From the NCBI GenBank assembly GCA_016201505.1, contig JACQCQ010000013.1, positions 5,285 to 69,284 on the forward strand: 64,000 nt of DNA. The letters are read 5' to 3'. Of this stretch, positions 555-32,717 are shown in pieces. The DNA is from Candidatus Sungiibacteriota bacterium (GTDB lineage Bacteria; Patescibacteriota; Minisyncoccia; Sungbacterales; JACQCQ01). Below the pieces are notes generated by a model. That model ran no database searches. It saw nothing but the letters and a program-made list of their open reading frames with translations, and was not told the DNA's origin. Numbering within the stretch: position 1 is the stretch's first letter; every line of letters begins with the position of its first letter. The position numbers and the translations under genes were made by a program.

Positions 555-2078
555 TTAAAAGCTACGCAAAACTTTAATTTTAGCACCCAGTTTTTGCAGC
601 CGCTCGGTTAGATCTTCATATCCCCGATTAATCGAGTAAACATTTCTCAAGATAGAAGTGCCAGTAGCAGCCAGCATAGCAATTAAAATCAAGGCCGAAG
701 GACGCAAGGCCGGCGGGCAGATGACTTCGGCCGCAGTCAATTTCGTTGGCCCCTTAATAAATACACGGTGGGGATCGGCCATGGTAACCGAAGCCCCAAG
801 TTTCGTCAGTTCTAGATAATAAACGGCGCGATTTTCAAAGACCCAGTCGTGGATTAAGGTTTCGCCGCGGGCCTGCGTCGCAATCGGCACAAAAAACGGC
901 AGGTTGTCGATATTGATCCCGGGGAAGGGGCGGGCATAAATTTTTTCGGGGAGAGCGGTAAGCCTTGATAGAAATGTTTTAATATCAACCAATTTTGTGC
1001 GCCCATTCGATGATACATAGCGCTTTAAAATTTTATACCGAAATCCCATTTCTTTTAGCTTCAGTAGTTCAAGTTCTAAAAAGTCAATCGGGCAGCGCTC
1101 GATGGTAATTGGTGAATTCGTTGTCGCCGCGATCGAAAGAAACAGCATCGATTCAATCGGATCTTCGGCCAGATGATAGCTGACATCTTTTTGAATAGTT
1201 TCTATTCCCTCAACTGTCAGCGTTGAGGTACCGATGCCCTCAATTTTGACCCCAAGAAGCTCTAAGAAAAAACAAAGCTCCTGGCCCATATAATTGGCCG
1301 AAGCGAACTTAATCATTGTTTTGCCGGGAATCCCGGCTGCGGCCATAATCGCATTTTCGGTCACCGTATCACCTGATTCGTAGAGAACCACCTCGGCCGG
1401 ATGCAAGTTTTTGGCTACCACATCATATTGGTATTCATGAGAGGAAATATTGACTCCGAACTCGCGCAGGGCTAAAAAGTGCGGCCGCGCGGTCCGGAGA
1501 CCGAGCCGGCATCCCCCGGGCTCGGGAATAGAAAACTGCCGGGCCAAATGAATCAGCGGACCCAAAAATAACAGTATGCTGCGAGTTTTTTTCGCGGCCT
1601 CGATGTTTAAATTTTTTAAATTCAGCCTTTGGGGCGGGATAATCTCAAGATCCTTCTCGTTCTGCCAGCGAACATAAACACCGAGACTTTCCAAAATTTC
1701 AATTAACCTGCGCACCTCTTCAATTTTAGGCATGGACCGAAGAACCGTCCGGCCGCGATTTAAAAGTGATGCGGCCAGCAACACCACTGCGCTGTTTTTT
1801 GCCGAATTTGTTTTAATCTTTCCTGAAAGTCTATGTCCTCCCTCGATTTCAAAATTGAGCGATGCTCCAGAAACAGAAATGATACTTTTCGCCAAGACTT
1901 TGCTGATACGCAAGAGCATCACAGTCGAAAAATTCTGATCACCGCGCTCCATGCGGGCCACGGCGCTTTGGCTGGTTTTAAGTCGCCGCGCTAGGTCTTT
2001 TTGCGTCAGGCCCAGCGTCTCGCGCCGACTCGCAATCATCGATCCGATTTTAACTCGTTCATGAGATAACGGCCGCAT
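555..2078 (-). CDS. murA: UDP-N-acetylglucosamine 1-carboxyvinyltransferase with an N-terminal XRE-type HTH domain in the same frame
   Basis: Residues 14-70 are HTH-like (LGLTQKDLARRL...SQSAVARMERG). The remainder is MurA-like (LSGKIKTNSAKNSAVVLLAASLL, PGGCRLGLRTARPH with the active-site Cys). No internal Met or stop separates the two domains. Confidence 0.8.
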   Translation of the reverse strand: MRPLSHERVKIGSMIASRRETLGLTQKDLARRLKTSQSAVARMERGDQNFSTVMLLRISKVLAKSIISVSGASLNFEIEGGHRLSGKIKTNSAKNSAVVLLAASLLNRGRTVLRSMPKIEEVRRLIEILESLGVYVRWQNEKDLEIIPPQRLNLKNLNIEAAKKTRSILLFLGPLIHLARQFSIPEPGGCRLGLRTARPHFLALREFGVNISSHEYQYDVVAKNLHPAEVVLYESGDTVTENAIMAAAGIPGKTMIKFASANYMGQELCFFLELLGVKIEGIGTSTLTVEGIETIQKDVSYHLAEDPIESMLFLSIAATTNSPITIERCPIDFLELELLKLKEMGFRYKILKRYVSSNGRTKLVDIKTFLSRLTALPEKIYARPFPGINIDNLPFFVPIATQARGETLIHDWVFENRAVYYLELTKLGASVTMADPHRVFIKGPTKLTAAEVICPPALRPSALILIAMLAATGTSILRNVYSINRGYEDLTERLQKLGAKIKVLRSF

Positions 2079-4110: not shown

Positions 4111-4646
4111 CTATGAGCCGCAGCCGCACGATTTTAACGAACCCTAATCCCCTATTGCGAAAGCGAGCTAAGGAAGTTTCGGCGGCTGCTTTTAAGACCG
4201 CGGCATTGAAACACGCGATCCGCGATTTAATTGCGACACTCAAGGTTTCGGAAGACGGTATCGGCATCGCCGCGCCTCAAATCGGCATTGCTTGGCGGAT
4301 TTTTATTGTGTCAGAAGAAGCCAAACATTTGAGCCAGAGCCGGGCCAAAGAGAACCGCGAATGGAAACAGCTGGTGTATATTAATCCTGTCATCACCAAA
4401 TTTTCGACCAAAAAGGCGGAAGGCGTCGAAGGCTGCCTCTCTGTTCCCGGCAAATACGGCTTTGTGACAAGACCTGAAAAAGTCCAGGTCGAGGCATTCG
4501 ATGAAAAAGGAAAGAAATTCTCGCACGGCGCCTCGAAATTTTTTGCCCGCGTGATCCAACATGAAACAGACCACTTGGACGGAATTTTATTCATTGATAA
4601 AGTAACGCGCTACATTGAGCCGAAAAAAAGCGATTCGAAACTTTAG
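4107..4646 (+). CDS. def: Peptide deformylase
   Basis: Motifs GIGIAAPQIG, EGCLSVPG and QHETDHLDG. ATGA overlap with the priA stop. Confidence 0.9.
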   Translation: MTMSRSRTILTNPNPLLRKRAKEVSAAAFKTAALKHAIRDLIATLKVSEDGIGIAAPQIGIAWRIFIVSEEAKHLSQSRAKENREWKQLVYINPVITKFSTKKAEGVEGCLSVPGKYGFVTRPEKVQVEAFDEKGKKFSHGASKFFARVIQHETDHLDGILFIDKVTRYIEPKKSDSKL

Positions 4647-16728: not shown

Positions 16729-17035
16729 CTCCTTAAAGAACGTATCTGATTGGTGCTTTATTGTATACCTCTAATAAAAATTAGCCAGTTGTTGAAGCTT
16801 TACGTGGCGGAGGAGGTTACTGTGTCCGTCCAAAGCCTTGGCGAAGGAGGAAAACCTATGCCGAGGAAGCGCTTTGGCTGGAGGACGCCATTAGAAGTTT
16901 TTGCCGACAGTGTTGCACTTACTTGTTGAACCTAATCCTTTGAGAGACAAAACGAGTATATTTACATACCAGATTCAATAACTTGCTCAAACGCATAAAT
17001 TTTTATCTCACCTCGCTACTCACTATTGTTTGGAA

Positions 17036-17087: not shown

Positions 17088-17630
17088 TTAGGGATTTAAG
17101 CCGACCTCTATCGGAAGCCCGGTTATAGTATCTACCATTTCTGTTACTCCACCGTCATTGCTCAAGAATACCTTACCGCTATCTTCGGCCAGGGTTACAT
17201 CATCAACTGGCGTGAAGTCAGCTTCACATAAGTTATTTGTTTCTGCAGACAAGTCGAATGCAACATTCCAAAGATATCCTGTATTTTTACCAGGTTTATT
17301 TAACCTTGGATTATAAGCATCAACCTCTTTGTTGGTGTTTACGACAGCTTTCTTATCAACAGTGATAGTTTTTGTACCTTTTTTAGTTATAATGTCCTTT
17401 TGACAGGTTTGCTCGTATTTGGCTTGAGCGTGGAGAAATACCCTCGCTCCATTTTTGTAGGTACCTTTGCCAACAAACCCATTAGCGAATCCATTGCTAT
17501 CTGGTGCGGCTAAGCTGGAAGCATAAACTAAGAGGTCATTTTGAACTGCAGCAAAGACCGCAGTTGTCGTGAGAGCCAAAACCATAGCTGTGATTCCTAA
17601 ACTAGCAGGTATTTTTTGTAATTTTTTCAT
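17088..17630 (-). CDS. Hypothetical secreted protein
   Basis: Signal peptide MKKLQKIPASLGITAMVLALTTTAVFA. Confidence 0.6.
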   Translation of the reverse strand: MKKLQKIPASLGITAMVLALTTTAVFAAVQNDLLVYASSLAAPDSNGFANGFVGKGTYKNGARVFLHAQAKYEQTCQKDIITKKGTKTITVDKKAVVNTNKEVDAYNPRLNKPGKNTGYLWNVAFDLSAETNNLCEADFTPVDDVTLAEDSGKVFLSNDGGVTEMVDTITGLPIEVGLNP

Positions 17631-17840
17631 GATATTTTTCCCAATATTAATGTTTTAGCAAGCTCGACCTTATTATTGGAAGACTATCCAAACTCACTTA
17701 AATTATTAGTAAGAAATATAGCATAAACAATTATTAAGTCAATTTTTTTACCGCACTTTTTCTACCACGCTCCGCCACTCACTATTATTTTCGGAAGGTT
17801 CTAATCCCGCAATGGGTCACGAAAATAACCCCTATAAAAT

Positions 17841-18155
17841 CAGGCTATTTTAAGTGCTCCATACCCTGAACGAAATCCGAACGCATTTTCGGGAAACCCC
17901 CGACGAATGAAGCCGCCCCGCCGCCGCTCGCTACCACTCGCCGCACCACAGAAAAATACTCTTTGCTCTTTTCGTTTTGCGCGCGCCCGATTTTTTCTTC
18001 TCTTAATGAAAAGAGTATTTTTCTGTGGTGCATTGCTTTGACAAGCAAGGCGGCGGGGCTGGCCTCTATTTTTTGCAAGAACACGGCGGAATTCCCCCCA
18101 CACCCCCCTTCCGCCGTGTTCTTGCGGGGACGGACGGAATTTTTGGCGGCGGCTA
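17841..18155. repeat. GC-rich repeat R1 copy A (inverted partner at 21998..22203), carrying a nested 107-bp insertion
   Basis: Sequence from 17841 onward equals the reverse complement of 22203 downward, except for an insert at 17926-18032. Contains long internal hairpins (gcaagaacacggcggaa...ttccgccgtgttcttgc and ccgccgccttgc-tttgacaa-gcaaggcggcgg). Confidence 0.75.
17946..18028. mobile_element. MITE-like 83-bp element with 19-bp terminal inverted repeats (ccacagaaaaatactcttt ... aaagagtatttttctgtgg), nested in R1 copy A only
   Basis: Perfect terminal inverted repeats seen directly. Absent from R1 copy B. Confidence 0.45.
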
Positions 18156-18163
18156 ATCAAGTA

Positions 18164-19222
18164 TTAAGATTGCTTAAAATACTCATTCAACTGATTGACA
18201 AATTCCTTTGTGTCTAAAAAATAATTTGGGTATGCTTTCCTTAACTCTTTTGCTGTGTCTGCAGATACAAGCACTATATCCCTATCTTCTTTATTTTTTA
18301 ACATCCTCTCTTCAAGCTTTGAGTATTCTGAGTTTGCAAATTCTTCTTGAGATTTTTTAAAAGCTGAAATTTTCAATTCTCTTGTTGTGAGGTCTAGGTT
18401 TAGAAGATAGAAATCAAATTTATCTTTAGCCTCTTTCTCAAAGTTCTCGATTATTTTATGAATTCTCGCCCACTCGTTCATTTTTTTAACAACTTTTAAT
18501 TGTCTCGCCAATGCCTGGACTTGTTCTCGTAACTCGGCTTTATCGGTGGGTGTATTCGGCACCGAGGGCGTGTTTTCCATATTCGCAAATGCAGAGCTAA
18601 CCAATCTGAAGAAATCCATCCACTCTTTTTGACCTTCGTTTGATTTAATTGCTTGTCTAGTAAAATGGTCAACTGTTTCAACGGCTGTAGCCCAATAGTG
18701 CTGTAAATATGTTCTTATTTGTATTTCAATTAGTAGTCCATCATATGCATTACTTTTATCGCTGTAATATTTATAAACAAAATGGAAACTTCTATATCCG
18801 TCAGGTTTTGGATTCGTTATATAATCTTTCTTATTTGATAATTTATGTTTCAGGCCCCTGCTTTTTTCGTAAAGTCCAACAAGTTCATTAACTTTCTGAA
18901 GGTTTGGCAAAACCGATCTGCAGCCGCCAACATCTTGCATTCTTGACATCTTCATTTTGCTAGTCTGATCACGCTTGAGCTTCTTAATTATTGATGAGAC
19001 GCGCTTGAGCCGCCGCGTAACTATTGCCGATGAATCAACTCGTTTTGAAATTCGTTTTAGTCTCACGGCAAACGTATGCAGTGGAAAACTATGAGATGAA
19101 CGCCAATTAGTCAAGATATCGAGAGCATTGCTTATTTCTTCGGACGAGCTACTCGAAGAAATAAGCACATCTCCCGCTTTATTTACCTGATTCTTCGAAA
19201 AATTTAATTTGGTCCATCCCAT
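18164..19222 (-). CDS. RelA/SpoT-domain nucleotide pyrophosphokinase (toxSAS-like) with a ~150-aa C-terminal helical extension; candidate CapRel-type fused toxin-antitoxin
   Basis: RelA/SpoT synthetase motifs: ISNALDILTNWRSSHSFPL, RLKRISKRVDSSAIVTRRLKR, MQDVGGCRSVL (DxxGxR), PKPDGYRSFHFV, EIQIRTYLQHYWATAVE. 352 aa, versus ~210 aa for housekeeping SAS. Confidence 0.7.
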   Translation of the reverse strand: MGWTKLNFSKNQVNKAGDVLISSSSSSEEISNALDILTNWRSSHSFPLHTFAVRLKRISKRVDSSAIVTRRLKRVSSIIKKLKRDQTSKMKMSRMQDVGGCRSVLPNLQKVNELVGLYEKSRGLKHKLSNKKDYITNPKPDGYRSFHFVYKYYSDKSNAYDGLLIEIQIRTYLQHYWATAVETVDHFTRQAIKSNEGQKEWMDFFRLVSSAFANMENTPSVPNTPTDKAELREQVQALARQLKVVKKMNEWARIHKIIENFEKEAKDKFDFYLLNLDLTTRELKISAFKKSQEEFANSEYSKLEERMLKNKEDRDIVLVSADTAKELRKAYPNYFLDTKEFVNQLNEYFKQS

Positions 19223-19261
19223 AACATTACTTTATTTTCCAGTTTTAATTCGGTTAGCTTT

Positions 19262-20431
19262 TTACCGATTTCCTTTTGCTCGATTGTGGGTCTTGCACAA
19301 CATCTCACAATTTTTCGTTGAAGTAGCACCACCCTTACTCCACGCTGATACATGATCTGCTTCCATTTCGCTAAAACTCCAAACCTTGCTCTTATTGGCG
19401 TCATGTCCTATCGCGCAATGTGAACAATTTGATTTCTCTTTAGTTTCCGCCTCACTTGTTTGTTTCGCGTAGACAGATCTCTTGGTCGCCTCATCAAAAA
19501 TTCGGACATCTAGCAATTTCGTATCAACTGAGCCGCCGAAAATATATTCAAAAATACCTTTTCGGTTTTTTACATACGGATCGCTATAAAGTTTTTGCAC
19601 CGCCTTTGAAATTTTAGCTGGGTCGTAAGACTTCTTGTGATACTCCTCATACAAGCGCCCCCACTCTAGGCCGCACATCTCGCTCTCTACATCTGTAAAT
19701 ACACTCGAAACCCAATCAATCACGCTATTGAAATATGTTTTTAGCTCTTTAATGTTTGTATCTTTGCGGTGACGACTCATGTAATCGTCAATATTCCCCT
19801 TACTTACCCAATCTAGCGCTCTCTCAAAAAATGCCTGTCGAGCCGCACTACCCTTTATGTATACGCTCCATTTTTGGATATTGGCATTTTGACTATTACT
19901 AAACTCCTCCTTGCCGAGCGTAACGAATGGCCCAGAATAGATAGCATTTAACAACTCTTGTGGAACGAGAGGTACTCCAGCGATATTTATAGTTTTGAAC
20001 CACTCCTTTATTTCACTTTCTGCGCCCTCGCATTCGTAAATAAGCAAAGGAGTTTTCAAAATTCTACTCTGCTTGTCTTTTGCCATGCCGCTAAAATATT
20101 GTTCCATTCCATTTTCGTCTTTTATGGCAAACTTGTCAGTTACAAACCGTCCGAGACTAGTGATGCGTTGTTGGCCGTCTAAAACTTCTAGATTGTCGGC
20201 AGAAACTTTATTGAAATAAATTAATCCTATCGGGTATTCTTTGAGGACTGATTCAATAACAGCTATTTCTCTTTTACCGCCATCAGACGCATAAATATAA
20301 TTTCGCTGGTACTCCGGCTGAATGGTGAGTTTGCCAGACAAACCAAATAAACCCTTGCCCTCGAGTTGGTTATAGATAAATCCATCGCAGATCTCTTTGA
20401 CAGTTATATTAGTTTTTAAAATTGTCTTCAT
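19262..20431 (-). CDS. DUF262 (ParB/GmrS-like NTPase) fused to a C-terminal HNH/His-Me finger nuclease; GmrSD-family type IV-like restriction endonuclease
   Basis: [15 protein letters not shown] motif. C-terminal CSHCAIGH...[11 protein letters not shown]...[18 protein letters not shown] motif. Confidence 0.75.
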
Positions 20432-20432
20432 A

Positions 20433-21647
20433 CTATTTTTTCTTATGTCTTATAAAAATTCTTTGGTAAGCAGACTGGACGATTCGACCTTCTTTGTTAA
20501 TAAAGTAGTTCTTTTTTTCATCATTTCCAACTAAATTAGCATTTTCATTTGTCTTTCCTCCAGATGATCCTGTTTTCATGCCATCCTGCCTTACCTCCCA
20601 ATAATCATAATAATTTTTTGTGTCAGGAACCTCATCATGGCACCCTCTTTGGGTCGCTCCTAAAATTTCAAACTGGTCCGGATTATATTTATTCAAAAAA
20701 CTAATCGGCACGCCCATCACACCTTTATAGTCGCTGGGAATATTTTTCACTAATGACACTTCTATTACATCATAATTGTCATACTTTTCGAATGGTTTTT
20801 TTGTTACAAACTTTATAACATCAGATTTAGTCATTAGCGGTAGTGACTGATGTCTGCGCCCATGGTCAAGATTCGTAAACCATAAGCAACCTTTCACAAA
20901 TAAAAATTTCTTTCCTTCCTCTATTTTTGAATTTGCGACATTTTCTCTTATCGGGTAATCGTCTGGTACTTGGAACCACTTATTTCGCCCGTCCATTGTG
21001 ACTCCTAGCCACAACTTATTATTCTTGATGAGTGGAAAAATTTCTTTATAAGTAATCGCATTTAAATTACCGATAATGATAAAATTTCTATTGTAATCAA
21101 AAAGCTGCTTAATATATGGTCGAAACAAGCTGAATGGTGGATTTGTTACTACAATGTCTGATTGTTTAAGAAGATTTATACATTCATCACCACGAAAGTC
21201 GCCATCGCCGTCTAGAGGCGTCCATTCGTTGTGTTTGTTTGCCTTTAACTGCTTGGCAACATCTTTCAAATTAAACTCGCCGTCTCCGTCTATATCATGC
21301 ACTTCGTTGATAATAAATTTGTTGGCAGTCACCTTTGGACGGCCTTTTGATTTTGTGAGCGTTTTGTCATCACCAAATAATCCTAGTTGTGTGTTGGCTA
21401 CGGGCGAGGGCTTGTAGCTGGTGGTAATAAGCTGTTTCAATCCGAGCTTGTTGAAATTGAGTACAAAATAGCGAAAGAAATTGCTCTCAAACGGATCGTC
21501 GCAGTTGCAATATACTACCTTACCGCGGAATGTATTAGCATTATATTCTAAATACGCTTCAATTTCTTTTTGAATATCGTCGTACTGAGTATAAAACTCA
21601 TCACTCTTTGCTTTTTTTGCTTTGTTAAAACTACTGCTGTTTGCCAT
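20433..21647 (-). CDS. N6-adenine (or N4-cytosine) DNA methyltransferase, EcoRI-methylase-like family
   Basis: N-terminal [14 protein letters not shown] and catalytic VVTNPPFS (NPPF) motif. Confidence 0.7.
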
Positions 21648-21649
21648 AA

Positions 21650-21865
21650 CTATTTCTGTATTAAATCATCAACGCCAACATTCAATGCCTTTGCAATTTT
21701 AGACATCGTTTCAATGGTCGGATTGATGTTTGCTCCCGATTCAATCTTAATGATTGTATTGTAGGTAACATCAGCAAGTTTCGAGAGCTTATCTTGCGAA
21801 ATACCGAGTTTGTTTCGGTATTTTTTGATATTATCAGCAATTTTTGAGTTGTTGCTTGCGCTCAT
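21650..21865 (-). CDS. XRE/Cro-type HTH regulator (RM controller C-protein-like)
   Basis: 71 aa with KKYRNKLGISQDKLSKLADVTYNTIIKIESG. First gene of the minus-strand cassette. Confidence 0.7.
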   Translation of the reverse strand: MSASNNSKIADNIKKYRNKLGISQDKLSKLADVTYNTIIKIESGANINPTIETMSKIAKALNVGVDDLIQK

Positions 21866-21997
21866 AGTAATATAATACTATAATCAAAGTAATGGCGATT
21901 AAAATTGATTATTATATTACTATGGTATCAAAAAATAACGAATTAGTAAATCTCAAAGGGAGCTCCTTAGCCTTTTCCGCGCACGGGTGGTGGGGCA

Positions 21998-22203
21998 AGG
22001 AAAAGAAATTAGCCGCCGCCAAAAATTCCGTCCGTCCCCGCAAGAACACGGCGGAAGGGGGGTGTGGGGGGAATTCCGCCGTGTTCTTGCAAAAAATAGA
22101 GGCCAGCCCCGCCGCCTTGCTTTGACAAGCAAGGCGGCGGGGCGGCTTCATTCGTCGGGGGTTTCCCGAAAATGCGTTCGGATTTCGTTCAGGGTATGGA
22201 GCC
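21998..22203. repeat. GC-rich repeat R1 copy B (inverted relative to copy A)
   Basis: Reverse complement matches 17841-17925 plus 18033-18155. Confidence 0.75.
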
Positions 22204-22337
22204 AAATTGGATGATACGAGTTCACCGCCTCGTCCCTCGACTTTGCTCGGGACTCGGCGGGCAAATCGGCAAGAATTTTCCACGACTTTTTGGGTTCAAA
22301 ACAAATCGCTTGCGGGCGCAAAACGTGGTTCGCCGCG
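22198..22337. repeat. Inverted repeat IR2, left copy (~140 bp, ~96% identical to the reverse complement of 23804-23940)
   Basis: Alignment done by eye. The ORF-track peptides share MIRVHRLVPRLCSGLGGQIGKNFPRLFGFK on opposite strands. Confidence 0.75.
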
Positions 22338-22451: not shown

Positions 22452-24011
22452 ATGAAATACTTTTTATACATCAGAAAATCAACGGACGAGGACGATAGAC
22501 AAGTTTTGTCGCTGGAAGCACAGGAGACGGAACTGAAGGAATTTGCCTTGCGGGAAAATCTTTTTATCGCCGCGACTTTCCGCGAATCGCAAACCGCCAA
22601 AGAGCCAGGCAGACCGATTTTCAACGACATGCTCAAACGAATGGAACGCGGCGAAGCCGAGGGGATTTTAGCGTGGCACCCCGATAGATTGGCGAGAAAC
22701 AGCATAGACGGCGGACGGATAATTTTCTTGATTGATACTGGAAAAATCAAAGCGCTAAAATCCCCGACATTCTGGTTTGAGCCGACCCCGCAAGGCAAAT
22801 TCATGTTGAATATCGCTTTTGGGCAGTCCAAATACTTTGTGGATAATCTTTCAGAGAATACCAAACGAGGGTTGCGTCAAAAATTGCGCCGAGGCGAATT
22901 GCCAGGCTACGCGCCACTTGGCTATTTGAATGACTTGCTAAAGCACACGATGTATAAAGACCCCGAAAGATTTCGCCTCGTTCGCAAGCTTTTTGAATTA
23001 TACGCAACCGGAAATTATTCTCTGAAAGATTTGCGGAAGTTGATAACTTCCGCCGGATTGTTGAGCCGCAAAGGAAATATGCTTTCCGTCTCCAATATCC
23101 AAAGTATACTCTCTACCTCATTTTATTACGGCGTATTCAAATACAACGGCGAACTTTATGACGGAAAGCATGAGCCAATGATTGCAAAGAAACTTTTTGA
23201 AGCGTGCCAAAAAGTGATGGCGGATCGTTCGCGCCCGAAAAAGCCGAGCCAAAAAGAATATCCGTTTAGAAATTTGCTCAAATGCGGCGAATGCGGATGC
23301 GCCATCACTTCTGAAACGCAAAAGGGGCATAACTATTATCGCTGTACGAAAAAGAAAGACAAACAATGTTCGCAAAAATATATCCGGGAGGAAGTTTTGG
23401 CACGCCAGATTTTGGACGAGATTCAAAAAGTTTCTTTGCCTCCCGCTTGGGCGGAATGGATGCTTACGGAATTGAACAAGGAAGAAGCGGAAGCCGCCCA
23501 AGCGGGTGTCGTTTTCGCTCAAAATCTCAAGGACAAAATAAAAGAGCTTGAAGGAAAGCTCGACCTGCTTTTAGACGCTCATTTGGACGGCACGATTTCG
23601 CGCGAGGAATACACCGCCAAGAAAGAAAAATTCATCACCGAAAAGGCCGAGCTTTCCGAAAAATTGAAGGATTTTGAGCGAAGCGGCAATCATTGGCTCG
23701 AACCGGCCCGGCAATTCATTTTAGCGGCTCTACAAGCCAAAAATATCGCTTTGCAAGAAAATCCCGTCGCGGGACGGGATTTTCTCAAAAGAATTGGCTC
23801 GAACCACGTTTTGCGCTCGCAAGCGATATGCTTTGAACCCAAAAAGTCGTGGAAAATTCTTGCCGATTTGCCCGCCGAGTCCCGAGCAAAGTCGAGGGAC
23901 GAGGCGGTGAACTCGTATCATCCAATTTGGCTCCGCGCCTTGACCGACGTTAGAACCGCCTTGATGAGCCTAACGGGCTACTCGCCGTTTACGATTGTGA
24001 GAGGATGGTAA
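22452..24011 (+). CDS. Large serine recombinase (resolvase N-terminal domain, recombinase domain, zinc ribbon, coiled coil)
   Basis: Catalytic YIRKSTDEDDRQ with the Ser nucleophile, CGECGCAITSE...YYRCTKKK zinc ribbon, 519 aa. Confidence 0.85.
   Translation: MKYFLYIRKSTDEDDRQVLSLEAQETELKEFALRENLFIAATFRESQTAKEPGRPIFNDMLKRMERGEAEGILAWHPDRLARNSIDGGRIIFLIDTGKIKALKSPTFWFEPTPQGKFMLNIAFGQSKYFVDNLSENTKRGLRQKLRRGELPGYAPLGYLNDLLKHTMYKDPERFRLVRKLFELYATGNYSLKDLRKLITSAGLLSRKGNMLSVSNIQSILSTSFYYGVFKYNGELYDGKHEPMIAKKLFEACQKVMADRSRPKKPSQKEYPFRNLLKCGECGCAITSETQKGHNYYRCTKKKDKQCSQKYIREEVLARQILDEIQKVSLPPAWAEWMLTELNKEEAEAAQAGVVFAQNLKDKIKELEGKLDLLLDAHLDGTISREEYTAKKEKFITEKAELSEKLKDFERSGNHWLEPARQFILAALQAKNIALQENPVAGRDFLKRIGSNHVLRSQAICFEPKKSWKILADLPAESRAKSRDEAVNSYHPIWLRALTDVRTALMSLTGYSPFTIVRGW
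23804..23940. repeat. Inverted repeat IR2, right copy, lying inside the 3' coding end of recombinase 1
   Basis: Reverse complement of 22198-22337. Confidence 0.75.
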
Positions 24012-24314: not shown

Positions 24315-25178
24315 TTAGTTATATTCTACCACTAACGAGGCTATAGTTCCTAAGGTACGCTTAGCCTGCCTACTTCTTTTACCATCCTTGTCTACCACCA
24401 CAAGACCTGCCCCCGAATGAATCCTTACACTGCCATGAAACTTATTAAGAGTCCAGTCCTGCACCACAAGCAATCCGTTACCACGCTTCTCTGGCATTCT
24501 CCCCGTAATACCGCTTAACCCCAACTCTATTGCTTCTATATCATCCTTAAGATCGGGTTTACTAAGTCTTAGCGAACCGAGGAACCCTCCCCCTGGGTCT
24601 GCCACAGAAATCTCTATGCGCTTTTTCGTGGGATAGTTTTGCGCGGTTATGATAGCTCCTCGAATCTCCGTCGGCCAGAGACCCTCGTTATGATCGAATA
24701 CATTATTCCCTAACTCTCCTACCATAGCCGTAGCTCTTGCCTCATCATCGGCATTCATCCCAAAATTTGTAAACATTTTCCTAATCCTAGACTGTAGTCT
24801 CGCATTGAAGTCATCCCGAAAAGAACAGTGGAGAATTTCATGCAGATTTGGGTTGTCCAACTCATTCATTAGAAGGTCGCTCATTGGCCTCATATCTTCT
24901 GCATACCCTAAATTAGTCATTAGTGAATCAAAGTGCATTCTTTTTAGATAGGCAAGAACATCAGGGCTGTCTGGCAATATAATCTTCTTATTCTGTAGAC
25001 TCTTATTCTCAATAGCTTTTAAGCAAACCAGCCCTATTATCCAAGGATCGCACCAAGTGCATGAACTCAAATCAATAATTTTATCTAGAAATGATTCAGT
25101 CTCCCCGATAGTCTCAAATGTGAAATCCATATCTTCTATAAATGGGCGGCTACTCGCCTCAAACCCCAAAACAATCAA
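24315..25178 (-). CDS. GHKL-family HATPase_c protein (SpoIIAB/RsbW-like kinase fold) with an N-terminal domain of unknown function
   Basis: N-box ELGNNVFDHN, G1 ADPGGGF, G2 GITGRMPEKRGNGL. Confidence 0.65.
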   Translation of the reverse strand: MIVLGFEASSRPFIEDMDFTFETIGETESFLDKIIDLSSCTWCDPWIIGLVCLKAIENKSLQNKKIILPDSPDVLAYLKRMHFDSLMTNLGYAEDMRPMSDLLMNELDNPNLHEILHCSFRDDFNARLQSRIRKMFTNFGMNADDEARATAMVGELGNNVFDHNEGLWPTEIRGAIITAQNYPTKKRIEISVADPGGGFLGSLRLSKPDLKDDIEAIELGLSGITGRMPEKRGNGLLVVQDWTLNKFHGSVRIHSGAGLVVVDKDGKRSRQAKRTLGTIASLVVEYN

Positions 25179-25261
25179 TATAGCTAATTCAATAGCATTC
25201 TATCAGTATTCCCCAAGCTGATCGAAAACATCTTCCAGATTTTGACCGCAGAGCTTAGGTT

Positions 25262-26674
25262 TTACGCCAAAATCATTCTCTCAACTCGCTTTTGCGCGTT
25301 TGCTAAAACTTCGGTCGCCTGAATGCGCAAGGTTCGCATTTTTGAGTAAGACGACCGAACACCGTCTACTATTTTTTCCTGAACTGGCATGGGCGGTAAC
25401 GGGAATTTGAATGATTTGAATTCTTCAGAGTTTATATTTGGCTGACCAGCTGGTCTCTGAATGAGATTTTTCCACAATTCATAATATCGCGTTTGAGTGA
25501 GACAAAAAACGTAATCTGGGATTGCCTTCTGCGAATTTATTTTGAAACGGATCATATAACCAGCAAAAATAGCTTTACCCACCTCGTCCTTATAGATATA
25601 CGTTTTTCCTGCGGTTGCTCCGCTTCTGGCAAACAGTAAATCGTCTTGCTGCAGAATATATCTATCTTCAATTTTCTCTGCTGTTTTCCAGCTATCCGCT
25701 CGTAATTCTCCGTCATCTTCAATATCGGTAATTCTTATATAGCGCATGTCGCGCAATGGATTGCCATCAACAGCTCTCTCGTTTGCACCATATTGTGGTG
25801 GCTCGGATAAAACTTCTTCAAGCGTGGACAAAGAGTATTTCGACTCTAAGTGTGAATAAATGGAATAATCGCGCAAGTAGATCGGGTCGAGACGATTTGT
25901 AACCTCATCACTCCAGACCTCAAATACTCGCCGTACCCCCCCCTCTGGGATTTCTATACCAAGCTCGCCAAGAACGAAGCCGTCAATCGAGGCGATGATT
26001 TTTTGGATTTCTGTTTCTTTCTTTCGTTTTTCTGCATATGCCACTCGTATTGTTTCTACTACTTCCTTTTGAATTTTGATAGACGGAATAGGAAGTTTGA
26101 CTGATCTGATTTCGTCAAGATTGATGTTTGCTTGGACAGATGGCCGAGAAAGGCGATTGGTTTGGATTTTTCCGATTTTTGAATTCAAAACTGTTGCAAT
26201 ATAGTTGTTATCATACCCGTCTTTCAAAACAATTCGGGCAAGCGCCTGATTTATATTTGCTTCGCCTATACCATCTTGAACTATTGCGACTAACCCTATC
26301 GTACCGGCCATCGAGAGTAATAAATCACCCTCTTTGAGTTGTGTTCTTTTAAGAATTCCACTATGAATCTCCGGTTTGATGTAAAGCACATCCGATAAAT
26401 CAATATGCCCATCTTCGAGATTGGTAACACGAATAAAAGGGATGCCACCTTCTTCTTTGGAGATGTAAGCATCGCCACCCGCTAAAGGCGTTGCACCACT
26501 TCCGATATAATTCGCAATTTCTCCGAGTGTTTTTACATCTTTTCTGTTCGAGATTTTTTGTTCGAACTCTGTGAAATATGGCAAATAAAAACGTGGGTCA
26601 AGTCGTTTTTCAACCTTATCGCTCCAAATCGAAAATACCTGTGTCGCTAAATTATTATTTTCTGAATTTTTCAT
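25262..26674 (-). CDS. hsdS: Type I restriction-modification specificity subunit HsdS (two target-recognition domains)
   Basis: Two repeated TRD halves with conserved linker helices (LGEIANYIGSGATP..., LEEVLSEPPQYGAN...). ORF runs to 26749; start chosen at the internal Met closest to the hsdM stop. Confidence 0.8.
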   Translation of the reverse strand: MKNSENNNLATQVFSIWSDKVEKRLDPRFYLPYFTEFEQKISNRKDVKTLGEIANYIGSGATPLAGGDAYISKEEGGIPFIRVTNLEDGHIDLSDVLYIKPEIHSGILKRTQLKEGDLLLSMAGTIGLVAIVQDGIGEANINQALARIVLKDGYDNNYIATVLNSKIGKIQTNRLSRPSVQANINLDEIRSVKLPIPSIKIQKEVVETIRVAYAEKRKKETEIQKIIASIDGFVLGELGIEIPEGGVRRVFEVWSDEVTNRLDPIYLRDYSIYSHLESKYSLSTLEEVLSEPPQYGANERAVDGNPLRDMRYIRITDIEDDGELRADSWKTAEKIEDRYILQQDDLLFARSGATAGKTYIYKDEVGKAIFAGYMIRFKINSQKAIPDYVFCLTQTRYYELWKNLIQRPAGQPNINSEEFKSFKFPLPPMPVQEKIVDGVRSSYSKMRTLRIQATEVLANAQKRVERMILA

Positions 26675-28427
26675 ATTCTTCCAAAATTTTATACAGGTCA
26701 TTTTGTGTTTCGGTTCGTCCTGTCGCGTCATAGCCGATATGCTCAGCAATTGCCATAAAAATTTTATAACGCTTTAGTTTCTCCTTCATACCATTGCGCC
26801 TCACGAAAACAAGCGACGACTTCACGCCCGCGCCAAAGTGAGTAAAAGCAAATTGTGGAAGCGAAACAACGGCTAGAATCTGACATCGCTCCATAAGAAA
26901 ATCGCGGACATATTGGAGTGATGAGTTGGTCAAAATCCCATCCGGCAAAACAATCGCCATTTGGCCAGTTTCCGGCTTCAAAAAATCTACACACCTCTCG
27001 ATGAACAATATCTCGGTTTTTTGGTTGTCGCGGATTTTTTTGCCATTTTGAGCAAGCACAAATTTTTCGAGATAAGGGTGTTCGCTCCGCTTAACCGTAG
27101 CACCGAATGGCGGATTGGTAACGATGAAGTCAAAACGATTTCGTGCAAAGCCAGGATTTTTTGCCTTCATCTTTTCAATATCATTGAGCGCGTCATGGCC
27201 GATGACGTTCGTGTGGCCATCGTCGTGAATAATCATATTCATTTTGGCTACACGCGCGATGGAGTCATTTATTTCAATACCGAAAAGATTGTTTTGCGCA
27301 AAATCATGCCAATACCGCCACTGCTCTTTTTCCTCATTGGGGTAATACTCCGCCGCCTGATGTCGGACTTCGTCGAGCGTATGCAAAAGAAAGCCGCCAG
27401 AACCGCACGCAGGGTCAAGCACAAGGTCGTCATTCTTTATGCTCATCATTTTGACGGCAAAACTAACGATATTGCGCGGGGTGAAAAATTGACCGCTTTT
27501 GCCCTTGAAAAAATCCTCCATAAAATGCTCAAAGGCGACACCTTTGGTATCAAGGTCGGTTTTATCAAGAGAAATGCCCTGTAAGTGCTCGACGACGGTA
27601 TACAATTCTTCCGGCTCGATTTTCAAATCTTCCTTAAAGACTTCGGGATCAATCTTTTTCGCTTCAAGATAAATGGCGTTGATACGCTTATAGACGCTCT
27701 CCGCACTCTCGTGTGTTTTGATCTGAAAATCATAAGGGTCGCCCGTGCGGCGTCCCTTTTTTTCATCGCGAATTTTTACAAAAATAATTTTGGCGAATTC
27801 ATCAAACGCGGTGGTTGGCGCACGCTTGCCGCCCGCCCAAAGTGTATCGTGGCACTTTTGGAATGCCCGTTTTAAGTCCTCTTGGTCAATCGGCTTCAAA
27901 TCCCAATGCTGATCGCCTTTTTTGTAGCGAAATTCCTCAACTTTGCCGTAGGAAATCGGAATATCAGTGATAGTTGCCTTTTCTGGCTCTTTGTCGTTCC
28001 AAACGCCGGTTTCCATCGCGCGACGAGTATTGCCCGCTACACAATTCGAGAATGGAGCACGAAGAACGCGTGCATTGGCAATGGCTTGTTTTGTTGCTTG
28101 TTCAAATTCCGCATCGGAAATGCCATCTTTTTTACACTCAACGACGATGTAGGGCTTACGTTGAGCATTATCTTCATAAATAACAATGTCCGCGTAGCGT
28201 TCTGGTGTGCGGTCTGGCATTTCCACTTCAAGTCCGATACGCGCAGCAGGATAGTTGTATTTTTCGATAAGGTCAAAATAGTATTCAGCACGAACTTTTT
28301 CTTCGGGATCGCTTAGGTTTTCCTTGTGTCCAGACGGCAAGTATTCAATCTTCGCCCCACCGTTATGCAAACGGAAGTACCCCTTTCGTTCTCCATCTTT
28401 TAGAATTTTTTCAAATGCGGACTGCAT
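26655..28427 (-). CDS. hsdM: Type I restriction-modification N6-adenine methyltransferase HsdM
   Basis: LVLDPACGSGGFL (motif I), TNPPFG (motif IV), HsdM N-terminal domain. Confidence 0.85.
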   Translation of the reverse strand: MQSAFEKILKDGERKGYFRLHNGGAKIEYLPSGHKENLSDPEEKVRAEYYFDLIEKYNYPAARIGLEVEMPDRTPERYADIVIYEDNAQRKPYIVVECKKDGISDAEFEQATKQAIANARVLRAPFSNCVAGNTRRAMETGVWNDKEPEKATITDIPISYGKVEEFRYKKGDQHWDLKPIDQEDLKRAFQKCHDTLWAGGKRAPTTAFDEFAKIIFVKIRDEKKGRRTGDPYDFQIKTHESAESVYKRINAIYLEAKKIDPEVFKEDLKIEPEELYTVVEHLQGISLDKTDLDTKGVAFEHFMEDFFKGKSGQFFTPRNIVSFAVKMMSIKNDDLVLDPACGSGGFLLHTLDEVRHQAAEYYPNEEKEQWRYWHDFAQNNLFGIEINDSIARVAKMNMIIHDDGHTNVIGHDALNDIEKMKAKNPGFARNRFDFIVTNPPFGATVKRSEHPYLEKFVLAQNGKKIRDNQKTEILFIERCVDFLKPETGQMAIVLPDGILTNSSLQYVRDFLMERCQILAVVSLPQFAFTHFGAGVKSSLVFVRRNGMKEKLKRYKIFMAIAEHIGYDATGRTETQNDLYKILEEYEKFRK

Positions 28428-28428
28428 A

Positions 28429-28653
28429 TTATTTCTTTTTTAAGAGTTTCAGAATGTCATCTTTTTGATAGCGTCTATCCTTCCTAATTCCAATACGAAT
28501 AGCTTTAAGAATCCCTTTTGTATCCCATTGGCGAAGCGTATTCGGATGACATTTCAGAACGGCGCAAGCCTCTTTAAGCGTTAGAAGTTCGGGGATACCC
28601 CTCTTCTCCTGTTTAGTCCTAGGCATTGATTCTAACTTAACATTTGCTAACAT
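28429..28653 (-). CDS. Excisionase-family/MerR-like HTH DNA-binding protein (Xis-like)
   Basis: IPELLTLKEACAVLKCHPNTLRQWDTKGILKAIRIG. Confidence 0.5.
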   Translation of the reverse strand: MLANVKLESMPRTKQEKRGIPELLTLKEACAVLKCHPNTLRQWDTKGILKAIRIGIRKDRRYQKDDILKLLKKK

Positions 28654-28682
28654 AGGCCGTAAATAGCATCATACCTTAGAAA

Positions 28683-29396
28683 ATGGCCAACGAAGTAGCC
28701 CCTATAGAGAAACTTAGCCAAATAAACTTCCTTAGCGTCTGCGATGTCGCTATGGATATTTTAGAACAGCTCCAGCTTTCTACTGAAGATAAAGTAACTA
28801 TTAAGCTGATACGAAATCTAATAAGATTCTCTATCCTGCTGCCAGCCAAAGCGCCGAACCTTATGGACGAATATGGCGACAACCGGATGAGGGCAGTAAT
28901 TTATCTGGAAGAAATTGGTGTTATTGCACACTATAAAGTCCTTAGTGACTATAACCACTACGAAGCAGAAATCTTAATAGACTTAAATCGAGGATCATTC
29001 AATTCATTCTATGACAAGTTGGGAGAAGTATACGAAAAAAGAGTTGTGGAGCCAGCCAAGAAGAACGAAAGCCAAGGCGATACCTCGCGAATTAAATCCT
29101 CTGATTTCTCATACTCCAAAGATGATGAAGTATGCTTTCGTGGACTTAAGGCAAAAATACCAGGCAATACCAACCAGTCAGGAATATGTAAATTCCTGTT
29201 TGGGCAAAACCTCGGCAGTTGGTTTGATTGGGATACCGTTTATCAAGAGATTAAGGGTGCCGAACCTATGAAAAATGAGAGCAAGGTCATCGCAGATGCA
29301 GTCGAAGCGATAAACCAAAAGACTGAACAAACAATCGGTCTCAAAATTATTGAATTTAAGGATAAAAAGTTGAGATTGAACCCACGATTATCTTGA
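28683..29396 (+). CDS. Hypothetical protein
   Basis: 237-aa ORF with no recognisable motif. Confidence 0.45.
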   Translation: MANEVAPIEKLSQINFLSVCDVAMDILEQLQLSTEDKVTIKLIRNLIRFSILLPAKAPNLMDEYGDNRMRAVIYLEEIGVIAHYKVLSDYNHYEAEILIDLNRGSFNSFYDKLGEVYEKRVVEPAKKNESQGDTSRIKSSDFSYSKDDEVCFRGLKAKIPGNTNQSGICKFLFGQNLGSWFDWDTVYQEIKGAEPMKNESKVIADAVEAINQKTEQTIGLKIIEFKDKKLRLNPRLS

Positions 29397-29459
29397 GTCG
29401 CAAATGACTCACCCGTGAGTCATTTAGCTAAGGAATAGGCTGAAAAAGGCCTATTTTTT

Positions 29460-29642
29460 ATGCTGCCAAAAGTCGCAATCGAAGAATTTAAGAAGCTCTA
29501 TCACGCTAGATTCAAGGTTGAATTAAGCGACGAAGAAGCATCATACCGAGCCAATAACTTGGTGAATTTGTATTCCGCAGTCTATGGCCAGCCCGTCCCT
29601 GGCCGTATCCAGCCGCCCACAAAGGATTCCAAGAAATTTTAG
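29460..29642 (+). CDS. Small hypothetical protein
   Basis: ORF only; its 3' end runs into an 18-bp tandem repeat. Confidence 0.3.
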   Translation: MLPKVAIEEFKKLYHARFKVELSDEEASYRANNLVNLYSAVYGQPVPGRIQPPTKDSKKF

Positions 29643-29662
29643 GATTCCAAGAAATTTTAGGA
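29624..29662 (+). repeat. Tandem direct repeat ggattccaagaaatttta, 2 copies plus a partial third
   Basis: Seen directly. Confidence 0.6.
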
Positions 29663-29678
29663 CAACAAGTTTTAGCAT

Positions 29679-30908: not shown

Positions 30909-31049
30909 AATGATGATGTTGACCCGTCCAAAAGCTATCCGCCACAAAGGTATTTTTATTGGTTTTAGTGTCCCAAAAGGGGCGGTTTCAGCCGGTAGAG
31001 CTACTTCCTTTGTGGAGCAAGCGGACTGGGTCAACCTGAACCGTCCCTT

Positions 31050-32684
31050 TTGTGTTTTATGAAAGAAAATCTTAATAAAATTTCATATTTTATTTATCCC
31101 AGAAAATCTTCCGAGCAGGAAGATAGGCAGGTTGTTTCCATTGAGTCTCAAACTAGAGAACTTCAAGAAGTTGTTGTGAGAGAATCTTTGGCTGTCAAAG
31201 ACACGCTCCCCGAATCTCATTCAGCGAAATCTCCAGGCCGCCCGATTTTTAACAAAATGGTTCAAAGAATCCAGGAGGGAGAGGCAAACGGCCTCTTAGT
31301 CTGGAACGCAAGCCGTATCGCCCGTAATGCGGTTGATACAGGCCAAATTATCCATCTTCTTGATACGGGAAAGCTACTTGAGGTAAGAACCCCTAGCCAG
31401 ATATTCAGAAACACCCCAAATGATAAATTCTTACTCAATCTCTTTTGTAGCCAAGCGAAACTTGAAAATGACAATAAGGGCGTGGATGTAAAACGGGGGC
31501 TTAAAACAAAAGCGCAAATGGGTATGTATCCCTGTCACGCGACGGCAGGATATATGAACGATAAGACTGCCGAGAAGGGCTTTAAGCAATTGCATCCAGA
31601 CCCCGAACGCTTTGAGCTAGTCCGAAAGATTTTTGACCTAATCCTTACCGGAGCGTATTCGCCGATGCACGCCTTAAGAATCGCAAACGAGGATTGGAAA
31701 TTCAAAATGCCGAGCGGCAAACCTATGGGGCGCAGTACCCTGTATAACATTTTGACCCGCCCGATTTATTACGGGATGTACGAATACCCTATCGGTAGTG
31801 GGAATTGGCATCGGGGCATCCACAAGCCAATGATTACGGAAGATGAATATGACAGGATTCAAATGCTCTTAGGCAGGCAGGGTAAGCCGCGCCCTAAGAG
31901 CCACATCTTTGATTTTGCCGGAATGATGCGATGCGGAGAATGCAATGCGATGATTACGGTTGAAGAAAAATACAAACACCAAAAGAACGGAAAAATCCAT
32001 CACTATATTTATTACCATTGCACCAAGCGAAAAAATCCTAACTGCTCTCAAGGCTCAATTGAAGAAGCGGAGCTAAATAGGCAGATAAATGCGGCCATTG
32101 ATAAACTCGTTATCCCGCCCGAATTTCACGATTTTGGCATGAGGTGGTTCAGGGCGCAGAACGAGAATGAGTCATCGAGCAGAAATGCTATCCTCGCTAC
32201 CCGTCAGGAAGCCTATAAGCTCTGTATCAAGAAAATTGACGGGTATATTGATATGCGAGCGGCCAAGGAAATTACAGCAGAGCAGTATGCCCAAAGGATA
32301 GCCCCCTTGGAACGCGAGAAAGCTCAACACGAGGAGTTTTTTGCCGATATGGGTCAAAGGATAGACCAATGGATTCAAACAGCAGACGAGATGTTCACTT
32401 TTTTGGACGATGCAAAGGAAAAGTTCAAAACCGGAACCCTGGAGACAAAAAGGCAGATACTTTCGACTCTTGGTTCGAACCTCGTGATAAAAGACAAAAT
32501 ACTCACACTGGACGTGCAAAATACGCTCTTGCCAATGGAAGTCGTCTCGGAAGAGGCTAAAAAGATTTATGCACGGTTCGAACCTGTCAAAAGTGCCATA
32601 GATAAAAGGAAACTGGAGCTTGCTTACTCCAAGAGTCCACGAATGCTCCGGCGGCAGGACTCGAACCTGCGACCTGGGGATTAA
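31050..32684 (+). CDS. Large serine recombinase, paralog of 22452..24011; its 3' end overlaps tRNA-Asn in antisense
   Basis: YFIYPRKSSEQEDRQVVSIESQ catalytic region, CGECNAMITVEEK...YYHCTKRKNPNC zinc ribbon, 544 aa. Confidence 0.85.
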   Translation: MCFMKENLNKISYFIYPRKSSEQEDRQVVSIESQTRELQEVVVRESLAVKDTLPESHSAKSPGRPIFNKMVQRIQEGEANGLLVWNASRIARNAVDTGQIIHLLDTGKLLEVRTPSQIFRNTPNDKFLLNLFCSQAKLENDNKGVDVKRGLKTKAQMGMYPCHATAGYMNDKTAEKGFKQLHPDPERFELVRKIFDLILTGAYSPMHALRIANEDWKFKMPSGKPMGRSTLYNILTRPIYYGMYEYPIGSGNWHRGIHKPMITEDEYDRIQMLLGRQGKPRPKSHIFDFAGMMRCGECNAMITVEEKYKHQKNGKIHHYIYYHCTKRKNPNCSQGSIEEAELNRQINAAIDKLVIPPEFHDFGMRWFRAQNENESSSRNAILATRQEAYKLCIKKIDGYIDMRAAKEITAEQYAQRIAPLEREKAQHEEFFADMGQRIDQWIQTADEMFTFLDDAKEKFKTGTLETKRQILSTLGSNLVIKDKILTLDVQNTLLPMEVVSEEAKKIYARFEPVKSAIDKRKLELAYSKSPRMLRRQDSNLRPGD

Positions 32685-32717
32685 CAGTCCCTCGCTCTAC
32701 CACTGAGCTACGCCGGA
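32646..32717 (-). tRNA. tRNA-Asn (anticodon GTT)
   Basis: Manual fold: acceptor TCCGGCG/CGCCGGA, D arm GCTCAGTGGTAGAGC, anticodon loop CTGTTAA, T arm GCAGGTTCGAGTCCTGC, discriminator G. Confidence 0.8.

Follow-up and report, generated by a model that had tools for sequence, protein, structure and literature searches.

CapRel is among the best understood of the bacterial immune proteins that sense a phage structural protein directly. Its paradigm, CapRel-SJ46, is the fused toxin–antitoxin of the toxic small alarmone synthetase (toxSAS) type from Salmonella phage SJ46 (PDB 7ZTB and 9ERV; Zhang et al., Nature 2022 and 2024; PMC9712102, PMC11578894); the trigger in this case is the major capsid protein, and CapRel blocks translation by modification of tRNA (PMC9712102). 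The C-terminal region of fused CapRels is homologous to the antitoxin of bicistronic toxin–antitoxin pairs, and the pseudo-zinc-finger domain (pseudo-ZFD) of CapRel has been described as a 'three-stranded sheet with a connecting helix'; either of the substitutions Y352A and Y355A makes the SJ46 protein constitutively toxic (PMC9712102). The subject of the present analysis is a gene that encodes a full-length relative of these proteins, found in a stretch of 64,000 nucleotides (hereafter the window; contig JACQCQ010000013.1, positions 5,285 to 69,284) from a Candidatus Sungiibacteriota bacterium of the candidate phyla radiation (CPR), where it is the last gene of a type II restriction–modification (R-M) operon (Table 1).

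Homology and architecture of the CapRel-type protein

The gene is an open reading frame (ORF) of 352 codons from ATG to stop, with a start that is conserved among its homologues, which begin M-x-W-T-K. A sequence-only reading of the window had located this ORF without stating its strand (minus) and had proposed a CapRel-like fused toxSAS, a proposal now supported by full-length matches to PDB sequences, to family profiles and to structures in Foldseek searches. The top phmmer matches in the PDB were 7ztb_A and 9erv_A (E 1.6e-45; query residues 5-347 against chain residues 12-368), followed by RelQ/RelP-type chains (E 1e-15 to 1e-9) that align to residues ~65-185 only. Alignment by BLASTP to the product of the SJ46 gene extended over 357 columns at 32% identity (E 1e-50). 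The PADLOC model PDC-S33, a candidate single-gene system, covers residues 1-350 of 352 (3.8e-124), and PHROG 4773 covers residues 5-351 (3.4e-104). These two families are unnamed or of 'unknown function' in their own libraries, and their link to CapRel comes through the SJ46 protein, which matches PDC-S33 end to end (7e-87); an archaeal relative matches the same model too. Since CapRel-SJ46 and the window protein match one and the same PADLOC model, PDC-S33 is simply a different label for the family of fused CapRels. The C-terminal 149 amino acids, searched alone, matched PDC-S33 at positions 201-343 (2.6e-35) and, in the PDB, CapRel-SJ46 only (E 1.4e-3, aligned through the AYPNYF motif), and are therefore assigned to the antitoxin/sensor domain of CapRel and to no housekeeping regulatory domain. 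On these alignments, the window protein is a full-length relative of fused CapRel, a single-polypeptide toxin–antitoxin, with homology in both halves.

The structure of the protein was predicted with AlphaFold2 from 85 homologues (predicted local distance difference test score 88.6, predicted template modelling score 0.87). At the top of a Foldseek search of the PDB with this model stood 7ztb_B, 7ztb_A and 9erv_A (E 6.6e-23 to 2.1e-21, template modelling (TM) score 0.68-0.71, 361-364 columns), from entries entitled 'Structure of the Salmonella tRNA pyrophosphokinase CapRel' (7ZTB) and 'Salmonella CapRel bound to Bas11 Gp54' (9ERV). All remaining matches were RelQ/RelP structures, aligned over ~180-200 columns to the N-terminal ~190 residues only. 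In the model, anchor helices (199-215, 228-242 and 244-251; anchor region 199-251) lead into a pseudo-zinc-finger-like unit (254-322) composed of a short strand (256-259), three further strands (271-277, 282-288 and 314-320) and a helix (290-310), and this is followed by another short helix (324-330), by the hinge that bears YPNY and, at the terminus, by a last helix (339-350). As modelled, residues 254-322 fit the described pseudo-ZFD, plus one additional short strand. The sequence-only reading had described a K/E-rich helical C-terminal domain of ~150 amino acids; the enrichment is real (K+E make up 24% of residues 191-352 and 14% of residues 1-190), but the predicted strands mean that the domain is not purely helical.

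In the N-terminal half, the Pfam RelA_SpoT domain was matched at residues 71-179 (E 1.5e-20; 74 bits, gathering cut-off 27), far beyond chance. Functional residues were mapped in the native numbering of SJ46, borne out by GGCR116 and PKPSGY155 in the alignment, with roles taken from PMC9712102, and their conservation was counted over 139 family representatives plus the query and SJ46 (141 sequences in all). Of the ten catalytic and autoinhibitory residues of SJ46 that experiments have defined, the window protein keeps eight by this alignment, the exceptions being A77 and A341. The residues that coordinate the ATP adenine, R79 and R116, correspond to R71 (141/141) and R102 (140/141), and the G-loop tyrosine Y155, altered in the catalytic mutant Y155A, corresponds to Y143 (141/141). 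At the autoinhibitory interface, V338, L339 and A351 are matched by V317 (V in 135/141), L318 (L in 139/141) and A330 (A in 124/141), and the tyrosines of the YXXY motif, Y352 and Y355, by Y331 (Y in 138/141) and Y334 (Y in 128/141, F in 12). K73, E166 and Q168 are invariant in 141/141 family representatives, as are D97, G100, R102, E166, Q168, R170 and H175 in the alignment of the 85 homologues. The four motifs quoted in the sequence-only reading are all found in the translation: RRLKRVSSIIKK (R71-x-K73-xxx-S... K), MQDVGGCRSVL, which supplies D97, G100 and R102, PKPDGYRSFH, which supplies Y143, and EIQIRTYLQHYWA, which supplies E166, Q168, R170 and H175. A check for loss of catalytic residues thus found them intact, and a check for a housekeeping match to the C terminus found none. 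The position of the capsid-binding (trigger-contact) residue L307 of SJ46, occupied by E282 in the window protein, is highly variable, as would be expected for a specificity position.

Selection on the gene was assessed against six close relatives, which gave 0.05-0.17 nonsynonymous substitutions per site (dN) with saturated synonymous substitutions (dS). Where it could be computed, omega (dN/dS) of the whole gene was ~0.03-0.05; domain by domain, dS was >1.3 or undefined through saturation, and the usable quantities are dN and a few omega values only. With omega at ~0.03-0.05, the gene has been kept by selection, and this purifying selection is strong.

Proposed mechanism and alternative explanations

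In the mechanism proposed for the window protein, the N-terminal toxSYNTH domain (approximately residues 1-190) would act as an ATP-dependent pyrophosphokinase with tRNA, at its 3'-CCA terminus, as the target. The C-terminal region with its Y331-P-N-Y334 hinge would fold back on the ATP site between R71 and R102, keeping the enzyme off, until a newly made phage protein bound the C-terminal domain and held it open, so that the toxin was released and the infection aborted. CapRel might then constitute a second, abortive-infection layer behind the co-transcribed restriction system. The probability that the protein is of the CapRel class and follows this general mechanism, as an autoinhibited tRNA pyrophosphokinase released by a phage protein, is put at roughly 0.8; confidence is lower than for the class when it comes to tRNA as the substrate or to what the trigger is. 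The surroundings of the gene in a defence island back activation by a phage protein and a defensive role indirectly. Toxicity, action on tRNA, autoinhibition, the kind of trigger and a defence phenotype are inferred for the window protein.

Several observations weigh against this reading. Identity to CapRel-SJ46 is only 32-33%, and two interface residues of SJ46 are changed, A77 to T69 (A in 93/141; V, S and G are also found) and A341 to S320 (S in 86/141, the commonest residue of the family at this position). The predicted structure deviates from the 'open' crystal form by a root-mean-square distance of 9.6 Å (TM score 0.69), which shows a different arrangement of the domains only. To our knowledge, no phage of this host has been described. 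In addition, within the close CPR clade (at least 70% identity) the pseudo-ZFD, and likewise the sensor domain, is as conserved as the catalytic core (77-90% identity, low dN), which is not the pattern that an arms race against a variable trigger would leave. Over 84 homologues of 51-88% identity, the pseudo-ZFD is the most variable segment (mean identity 47%, versus 65% for the core), and between the SJ46 and Ebc proteins the C-terminal region is 47% identical versus 70% overall (PMC9712102); unlike in this enterobacterial pair, the sensor domain is not hypervariable within the close clade of the window CapRel.

It is improbable, although of the alternatives this one survives best, that the toxin of the same fused, autoinhibited architecture makes (pp)pApp in the manner of FaRel or Tas1, or (p)ppGpp in the manner of GRel, the Pag1B of PANGU. 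The toxSYNTH fold and the G-loop tyrosine are common to all toxSAS proteins (bioRxiv 10.64898/2026.04.06.716658), and the substrate is not readable from the sequence of the window protein with the methods used. However, among full-length relatives the chemistry is known for CapRel proteins only, and these modify tRNA by pyrophosphorylation; no Tas1, FaRel or FaRel2 chain occurs among the 20 PDB sequence matches at E<=1. PANGU type I (the nucleoid-associated protein Pag1A with the GRel toxSAS Pag1B; bioRxiv 10.64898/2026.04.06.716658) likewise comprises a toxSYNTH effector with a C-terminal regulatory domain and acts by abortive infection, but it is encoded by two genes, senses through a nucleoid-associated protein, has a DNA-mimic domain of acidic character and makes pppGpp, and none of these features was found in the window CapRel. 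Whereas PANGU requires both the partner nucleoid-protein gene and the acidic C-terminal domain, the neighbours of the window gene are R-M genes and a non-coding repeat, with no nucleoid-associated-protein gene adjacent, and its C-terminal domain (K20/E19/R8/D9) is not acidic and is predicted to be a CapRel pseudo-ZFD with YXXY motif.

Less probable still is that the gene serves chiefly as an addiction module that stabilises a mobile R-M cassette by post-segregational killing, and not as a phage sensor. Its location inside a cassette bounded by inverted repeats and beside a serine recombinase gene, the recurrence of CapRel at the 3' end of differing R-M units (both detailed below) and a conserved sensor domain with no sign of diversifying selection would all accord with such a role. 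On the other hand, a fused toxin–antitoxin has no separately degradable antitoxin, so that it is difficult to see how post-segregational killing of the classical sort would work; R-M systems stabilise themselves as it is; the fused CapRels that have been characterised are phage-triggered; and relatives are encoded on 250 viral contigs of IMG/VR (the best at 49% identity). Housekeeping small alarmone synthetases have ~200-230 amino acids and lack a C-terminal antitoxin domain. The idea of such an enzyme, a (p)ppGpp synthetase of the RelQ/RelP kind to which an unrelated tail is attached, draws on the RelA_SpoT match and on RelQ/RelP being the next-best PDB matches, but is effectively refuted by the score of the NCBIfam RelQ equivalog GTPPhKinYjbM (70.7 bits versus a cut-off of 320), by the restriction of the RelQ/RelP alignments to the middle of the protein, ahead of a tail of ~160 amino acids that is specifically the CapRel antitoxin domain, and by the location of the gene in a low-GC mobile island and in no core locus.

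The restriction–modification cassette and its surroundings

The candidate CapRel gene belongs to a compact operon, the features of which are collected in Table 1. A type II R-M operon with a controller was confirmed, the genes for the C-protein, methyltransferase and endonuclease lying on one strand with short gaps; the gaps in the cassette are 2, 1 and 39 nucleotides (nt), the last of these between endonuclease and CapRel, and no terminator-like sites were found between the four genes. The claim that CapRel is the last gene of a defence cassette holds, in that it is the last real gene and is followed by a perfect 17-bp hairpin. The count of three genes in that cassette has to be corrected to four, as the 71-residue HTH_3 controller precedes the methylase. 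No separate antitoxin gene was found beside CapRel in scans of its neighbours with Pfam, PADLOC, NCBIfam and PHROGs. An ORF of 106 codons (17840..18160) that lies 3 nt past the CapRel stop was considered as an antitoxin or accessory gene and rejected as spurious: it is Arg-rich, lies inside a GC-rich inverted repeat, has an equivalent on the other arm of that repeat, and has no match in Pfam, PADLOC, NCBIfam or PHROGs.

Table 1. Positions of the predicted CapRel-type gene, its parts and the neighbouring cassette features in the window
Feature	Position	Strand	Evidence or remark
Fused CapRel-type toxSAS gene, 352 aa + stop	18164..19222	-	ORF; PADLOC PDC-S33; PDB 7ztb/9erv; PHROG 4773; dN/dS
N-terminal toxSYNTH (toxin) domain, residues 1-190	18653..19222	-	Pfam RelA_SpoT 71-179; conserved residues; SJ46 mapping
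toxSYNTH residue R71	19010-19012	-	mapped onto SJ46 R79
toxSYNTH residue R102	18917-18919	-	mapped onto SJ46 R116
toxSYNTH residue Y143	18794-18796	-	mapped onto SJ46 Y155
C-terminal antitoxin/sensor region, residues 191-352	18167..18652	-	AlphaFold2; Foldseek; searches with the C terminus alone
YXXY autoinhibitory motif Y331-P-N-Y334 (in A-Y-P-N-Y-F)	18221..18232	-	aligned to SJ46 Y352-P-N-Y355
Restriction endonuclease, GmrSD_N/DUF262-type N-domain + HNH	19262..20431	-	Pfam GmrSD_N 5.4e-19, HNH 1e-06; PADLOC REase_II 6.9e-80, full length
EcoRI-like adenine DNA methyltransferase	20433..21647	-	Pfam EcoRI_methylase 1.8e-127; PADLOC MTase_II 1.7e-105
HTH_3 controller (C) protein, 71 aa, first cassette gene	21650..21865	-	Pfam HTH_3 2.2e-16; PADLOC Control_protein 3.9e-08
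Promoter-like site before the C-protein gene	21869-21898		consensus match only
Left inverted-repeat arm	17856..18157		ends 6 nt from the CapRel stop
Right inverted-repeat arm	22008..22332		22008-22202 is 96-100% complementary to the left arm
Large serine recombinase beside the cassette	22452..24011	+	Pfam Resolvase, Recombinase, Zn_ribbon_recom

The cassette (18158-22007; 3,850 bp) is bracketed by long inverted repeats, in which 18030-18157 pairs with 22008-22135 (128 nt, 96%) and 17856-17925 with 22133-22202 (70 nt, 100%). The left arm holds an insertion of 104 nt (17926-18029) with a perfect 22-bp hairpin of its own. Each arm contains a perfect 17-bp hairpin (GCAAGAACACGGCGGAA/TTCCGCCGTGTTCTTGC), and the left-arm copy at 18075-18125 may be the terminator of the operon. 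Both arms stop on the same base beside the cassette (...GGCGGCGGCTAAT). The right arm continues into an inverted copy, ~150 nt long, of the 3' coding end of the serine recombinase gene next to it (22176-22332 versus 23800-23956; 92-95% identity); the copy lies upstream of that gene, and an ORF there (22148..22321) repeats the C-terminal peptide of the recombinase. From this copy it follows that the repeat material consists of the 3' end of a recombinase paralogue together with the sequence downstream of it, the 3' end of the adjacent gene (23800-23956) being its source or its paralogue, and the inverted copy at 22176-22332 is a remnant of a second recombinase gene. The repeat was also considered as a multicopy miniature inverted-repeat transposable element, which was rejected on the finding that within the window only the two arms and the 3' end of the recombinase gene match. 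A scan of Joint Genome Institute metagenomes for inversion, using exact patterns across the left repeat, returned 0 inverted and 0 native junctions, the strain not being in that collection. Neither a short target duplication nor an empty site was detected in the case of the window cassette. At a related locus from Ca. Buchananbacteria (L008, identical with L004), the orthologous methylase–endonuclease–CapRel cassette stands beside fusA-rpsG-rpsL and is bracketed by an imperfect inverted repeat of ~75 nt (501-575 and 4139-4213) of unrelated, AT-rich sequence, each arm of which has a small central hairpin, the two hairpins differing in sequence.

The GC content drops from ~0.49 to 0.37-0.40 between ~17 and 22 kb, and the wider low-GC island (~16.9-32.7 kb), which is flanked by the core genes rpoD, dnaG and priA, carries two large serine recombinase genes and a second R-M cluster and ends at tRNA-Asn. 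The second defence/mobility block occupies 24315-32717. It includes an ORF of 287 codons with a weak DrmA-like match alone, two ORFs with no family match, and a type I specificity subunit gene (25262..26749), the listed ORF of which overlaps the 3' end of a gene (26655..28427) for a type I-like methylase that has an HSDR_N_2 domain. The 3' end of the second large serine recombinase gene (31050..32684) overlaps tRNA-Asn (32645-32717) on the opposite strand. On the other side of the cassette, 17088..17630 encodes a 180-residue protein with an N-terminal hydrophobic, signal-peptide-like segment and a sub-threshold FlgC match only; this gene is flanked by a 32-nt direct repeat (17000-17031 and 17759-17790; 75% identity) with a motif of the AATAGTGAGT-GCG type. 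A candidate IS30-type transposase remnant at 16750..16929 was dropped, having no Pfam support. Farther away, a minus-strand gene at 555..2078 encodes a 507-residue protein in which HTH_3 at the N terminus (15-66) is joined to a complete domain of the EPSP-synthase/MurA type (79-494).

Relatives, distribution and comparison with known systems

The genomic context of the gene was examined at ten loci, the window included, with CapRel proteins 72-100% identical to the query. In seven of the ten, a type II R-M system is located directly upstream of CapRel on the same strand, and these systems are of at least five different kinds. The pair found in the window, an EcoRI-like methylase with a GmrSD_N/HNH endonuclease, also occurs at the Buchananbacteria locus. 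Elsewhere CapRel is preceded by a C5-methylase, R.HinP1I and Vsr (L003, 23-nt gap), by an N6_N4 methylase with either a MutH-like nuclease (L088, 22-nt gap) or DUF6996/DUF6997 (L089/L090), by R.BsaWI and an N6_N4 methylase (L010, 54-nt gap), or by R.Pab1 (L011). At the other three loci it follows a glycosyltransferase operon, ychF or a NUDIX gene. DNA similarity to the window is confined to the CapRel coding sequence, with the exception of L008, where it takes in methylase, endonuclease and CapRel. A VTT-domain gene lies downstream at both L003 and L088, the upstream R-M genes of which differ. At L011, which belongs to a Patescibacteria metagenome-assembled genome, CapRel is split into two pieces (1238-1444 and 2681-3534) by an insertion of ~1.2 kb, possibly an uncharacterised insertion element, that carries an opposite-strand ORF of 279 codons with no Pfam match.

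Linkage to R-M systems as a property of the whole family was rejected on the evidence of 59 loci of more distant relatives (41-55% identity). Among the 115 upstream-neighbour ORFs at these loci, each PADLOC family was matched by one ORF at most, and the 25 families listed include no R-M model; the CapRel genes are mostly standalone, with upstream gaps of 150-400 nt. Since no defence family recurs upstream at the 59 distant loci, the linkage is a property of this CPR sub-clade.

The family itself is large. An exhaustive HMMER search, with clustering at 50% identity, yielded 5,914 clusters for E<=1e-3 and 1,506 for E<=1e-30, almost all of them 340-380 amino acids long and with end-to-end alignments. 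A protein identical to that of the window is on deposit from a 'Candidatus Sungbacteria bacterium' metagenome-assembled genome. Close homologues named in the databases come from Sungbacteria, Moranbacteria, Buchananbacteria, Komeilibacteria and Parcubacteria. Of the best 80 loci in species-representative genomes, 42 are archaeal (45-54% identity), six belong to the CPR, and the rest belong to diverse bacteria (41-45%). The archaeal loci (L013-L060, L081) are mostly from DPANN lineages (Woese-, Pace-, Nano- and Micrarchaeota), with the addition of Methanoperedens/Methanosarcinales, and they are nearer to the query than are most of its relatives in bacteria. In an unbootstrapped neighbour-joining tree, the CPR clade of the query stands beside a large DPANN clade in which a few CPR sequences are interspersed, and this CPR/DPANN grouping is apart from other bacteria and far from SJ46. 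The CPR sequences within the archaeal clade suggest transfer between the domains. Papers on CapRel name Cyanobacteria, Actinobacteria, Proteobacteria, Spirochaetes, Bacteroidetes and Firmicutes; archaea are not mentioned by Jimmy et al. 2020 (PMC7229694). Among the searchable papers, none joins CapRel with Patescibacteria, and none was returned for 'PDC-S33'.

The family is a known and structurally characterised one, captured by defence databases as PDC-S33, and the protein is not a new kind of system. What is unusual is the ultra-small CPR host, the position at the end of an R-M operon, the CPR/DPANN spread, the conserved sensor domain and the cassette bounded by inverted repeats. Through the presence of a complete CapRel with largely conserved catalytic and autoinhibitory residues, the system now reaches lineages in which genomes are tiny, few defences are known and hardly any viruses have been described, and the recurrent placement of CapRel behind differing type II R-M systems offers a testable, concrete example of defence layers combined in a single operon. 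A broader proposal, which we regard as possible but doubtful, is that a CPR/DPANN-specific subfamily of CapRel forms a fixed 3' module of type II R-M operons, transcribed together with the R-M genes under their controller protein and moving as a recombinase-associated cassette bounded by inverted repeats, with relatives that cross into DPANN archaea. If so, ultra-small episymbionts would use restriction together with tRNA-targeting abortive infection, and exchange them horizontally, as a single two-layer unit, and this would be the first toxSAS immunity described for CPR/DPANN lineages.

Compared with CapRel-SJ46, the window protein has in common a single ORF of ~350-370 codons, the order of toxSYNTH domain, anchors, pseudo-ZFD, YXXY hinge and terminal helix, and the same fold by Foldseek. 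It lacks the 8-residue insertion that SJ46 has after the first beta-strand/helix, as well as several small loops. The hosts also differ, a CPR bacterium in the one case and an enterobacterial P1-like prophage in the other, and the window CapRel is in an operon with an R-M system whereas that of SJ46 is standalone. The bicistronic systems CapRel/ATcapRel and PhRel/ATphRel (Phrann gp29/gp30; Jimmy et al., PNAS 2020; PMC7229694) have a homologous toxin, but in these the toxin and antitoxin are separate genes, whereas in the window they are fused, with no adjacent antitoxin gene.

The closest parallel for the cassette is found in R-M units that resemble transposons and have long, imperfect inverted repeats on either side (Furuta, Abe and Kobayashi, NAR 2010; PMC2853133). 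As in those units, inverted repeats specific to the unit enclose a type II R-M set, mobility genes are near, and the island adjoins a tRNA gene. Unlike them, the window unit has repeats of 195-302 nt that stem from 3'-flanking sequence of a serine recombinase gene, and carries the putative abortive-infection gene CapRel as a passenger. By analogy, the cassettes of the window and of the Buchananbacteria locus both fit the description of transposon-like R-M units with CapRel as cargo.

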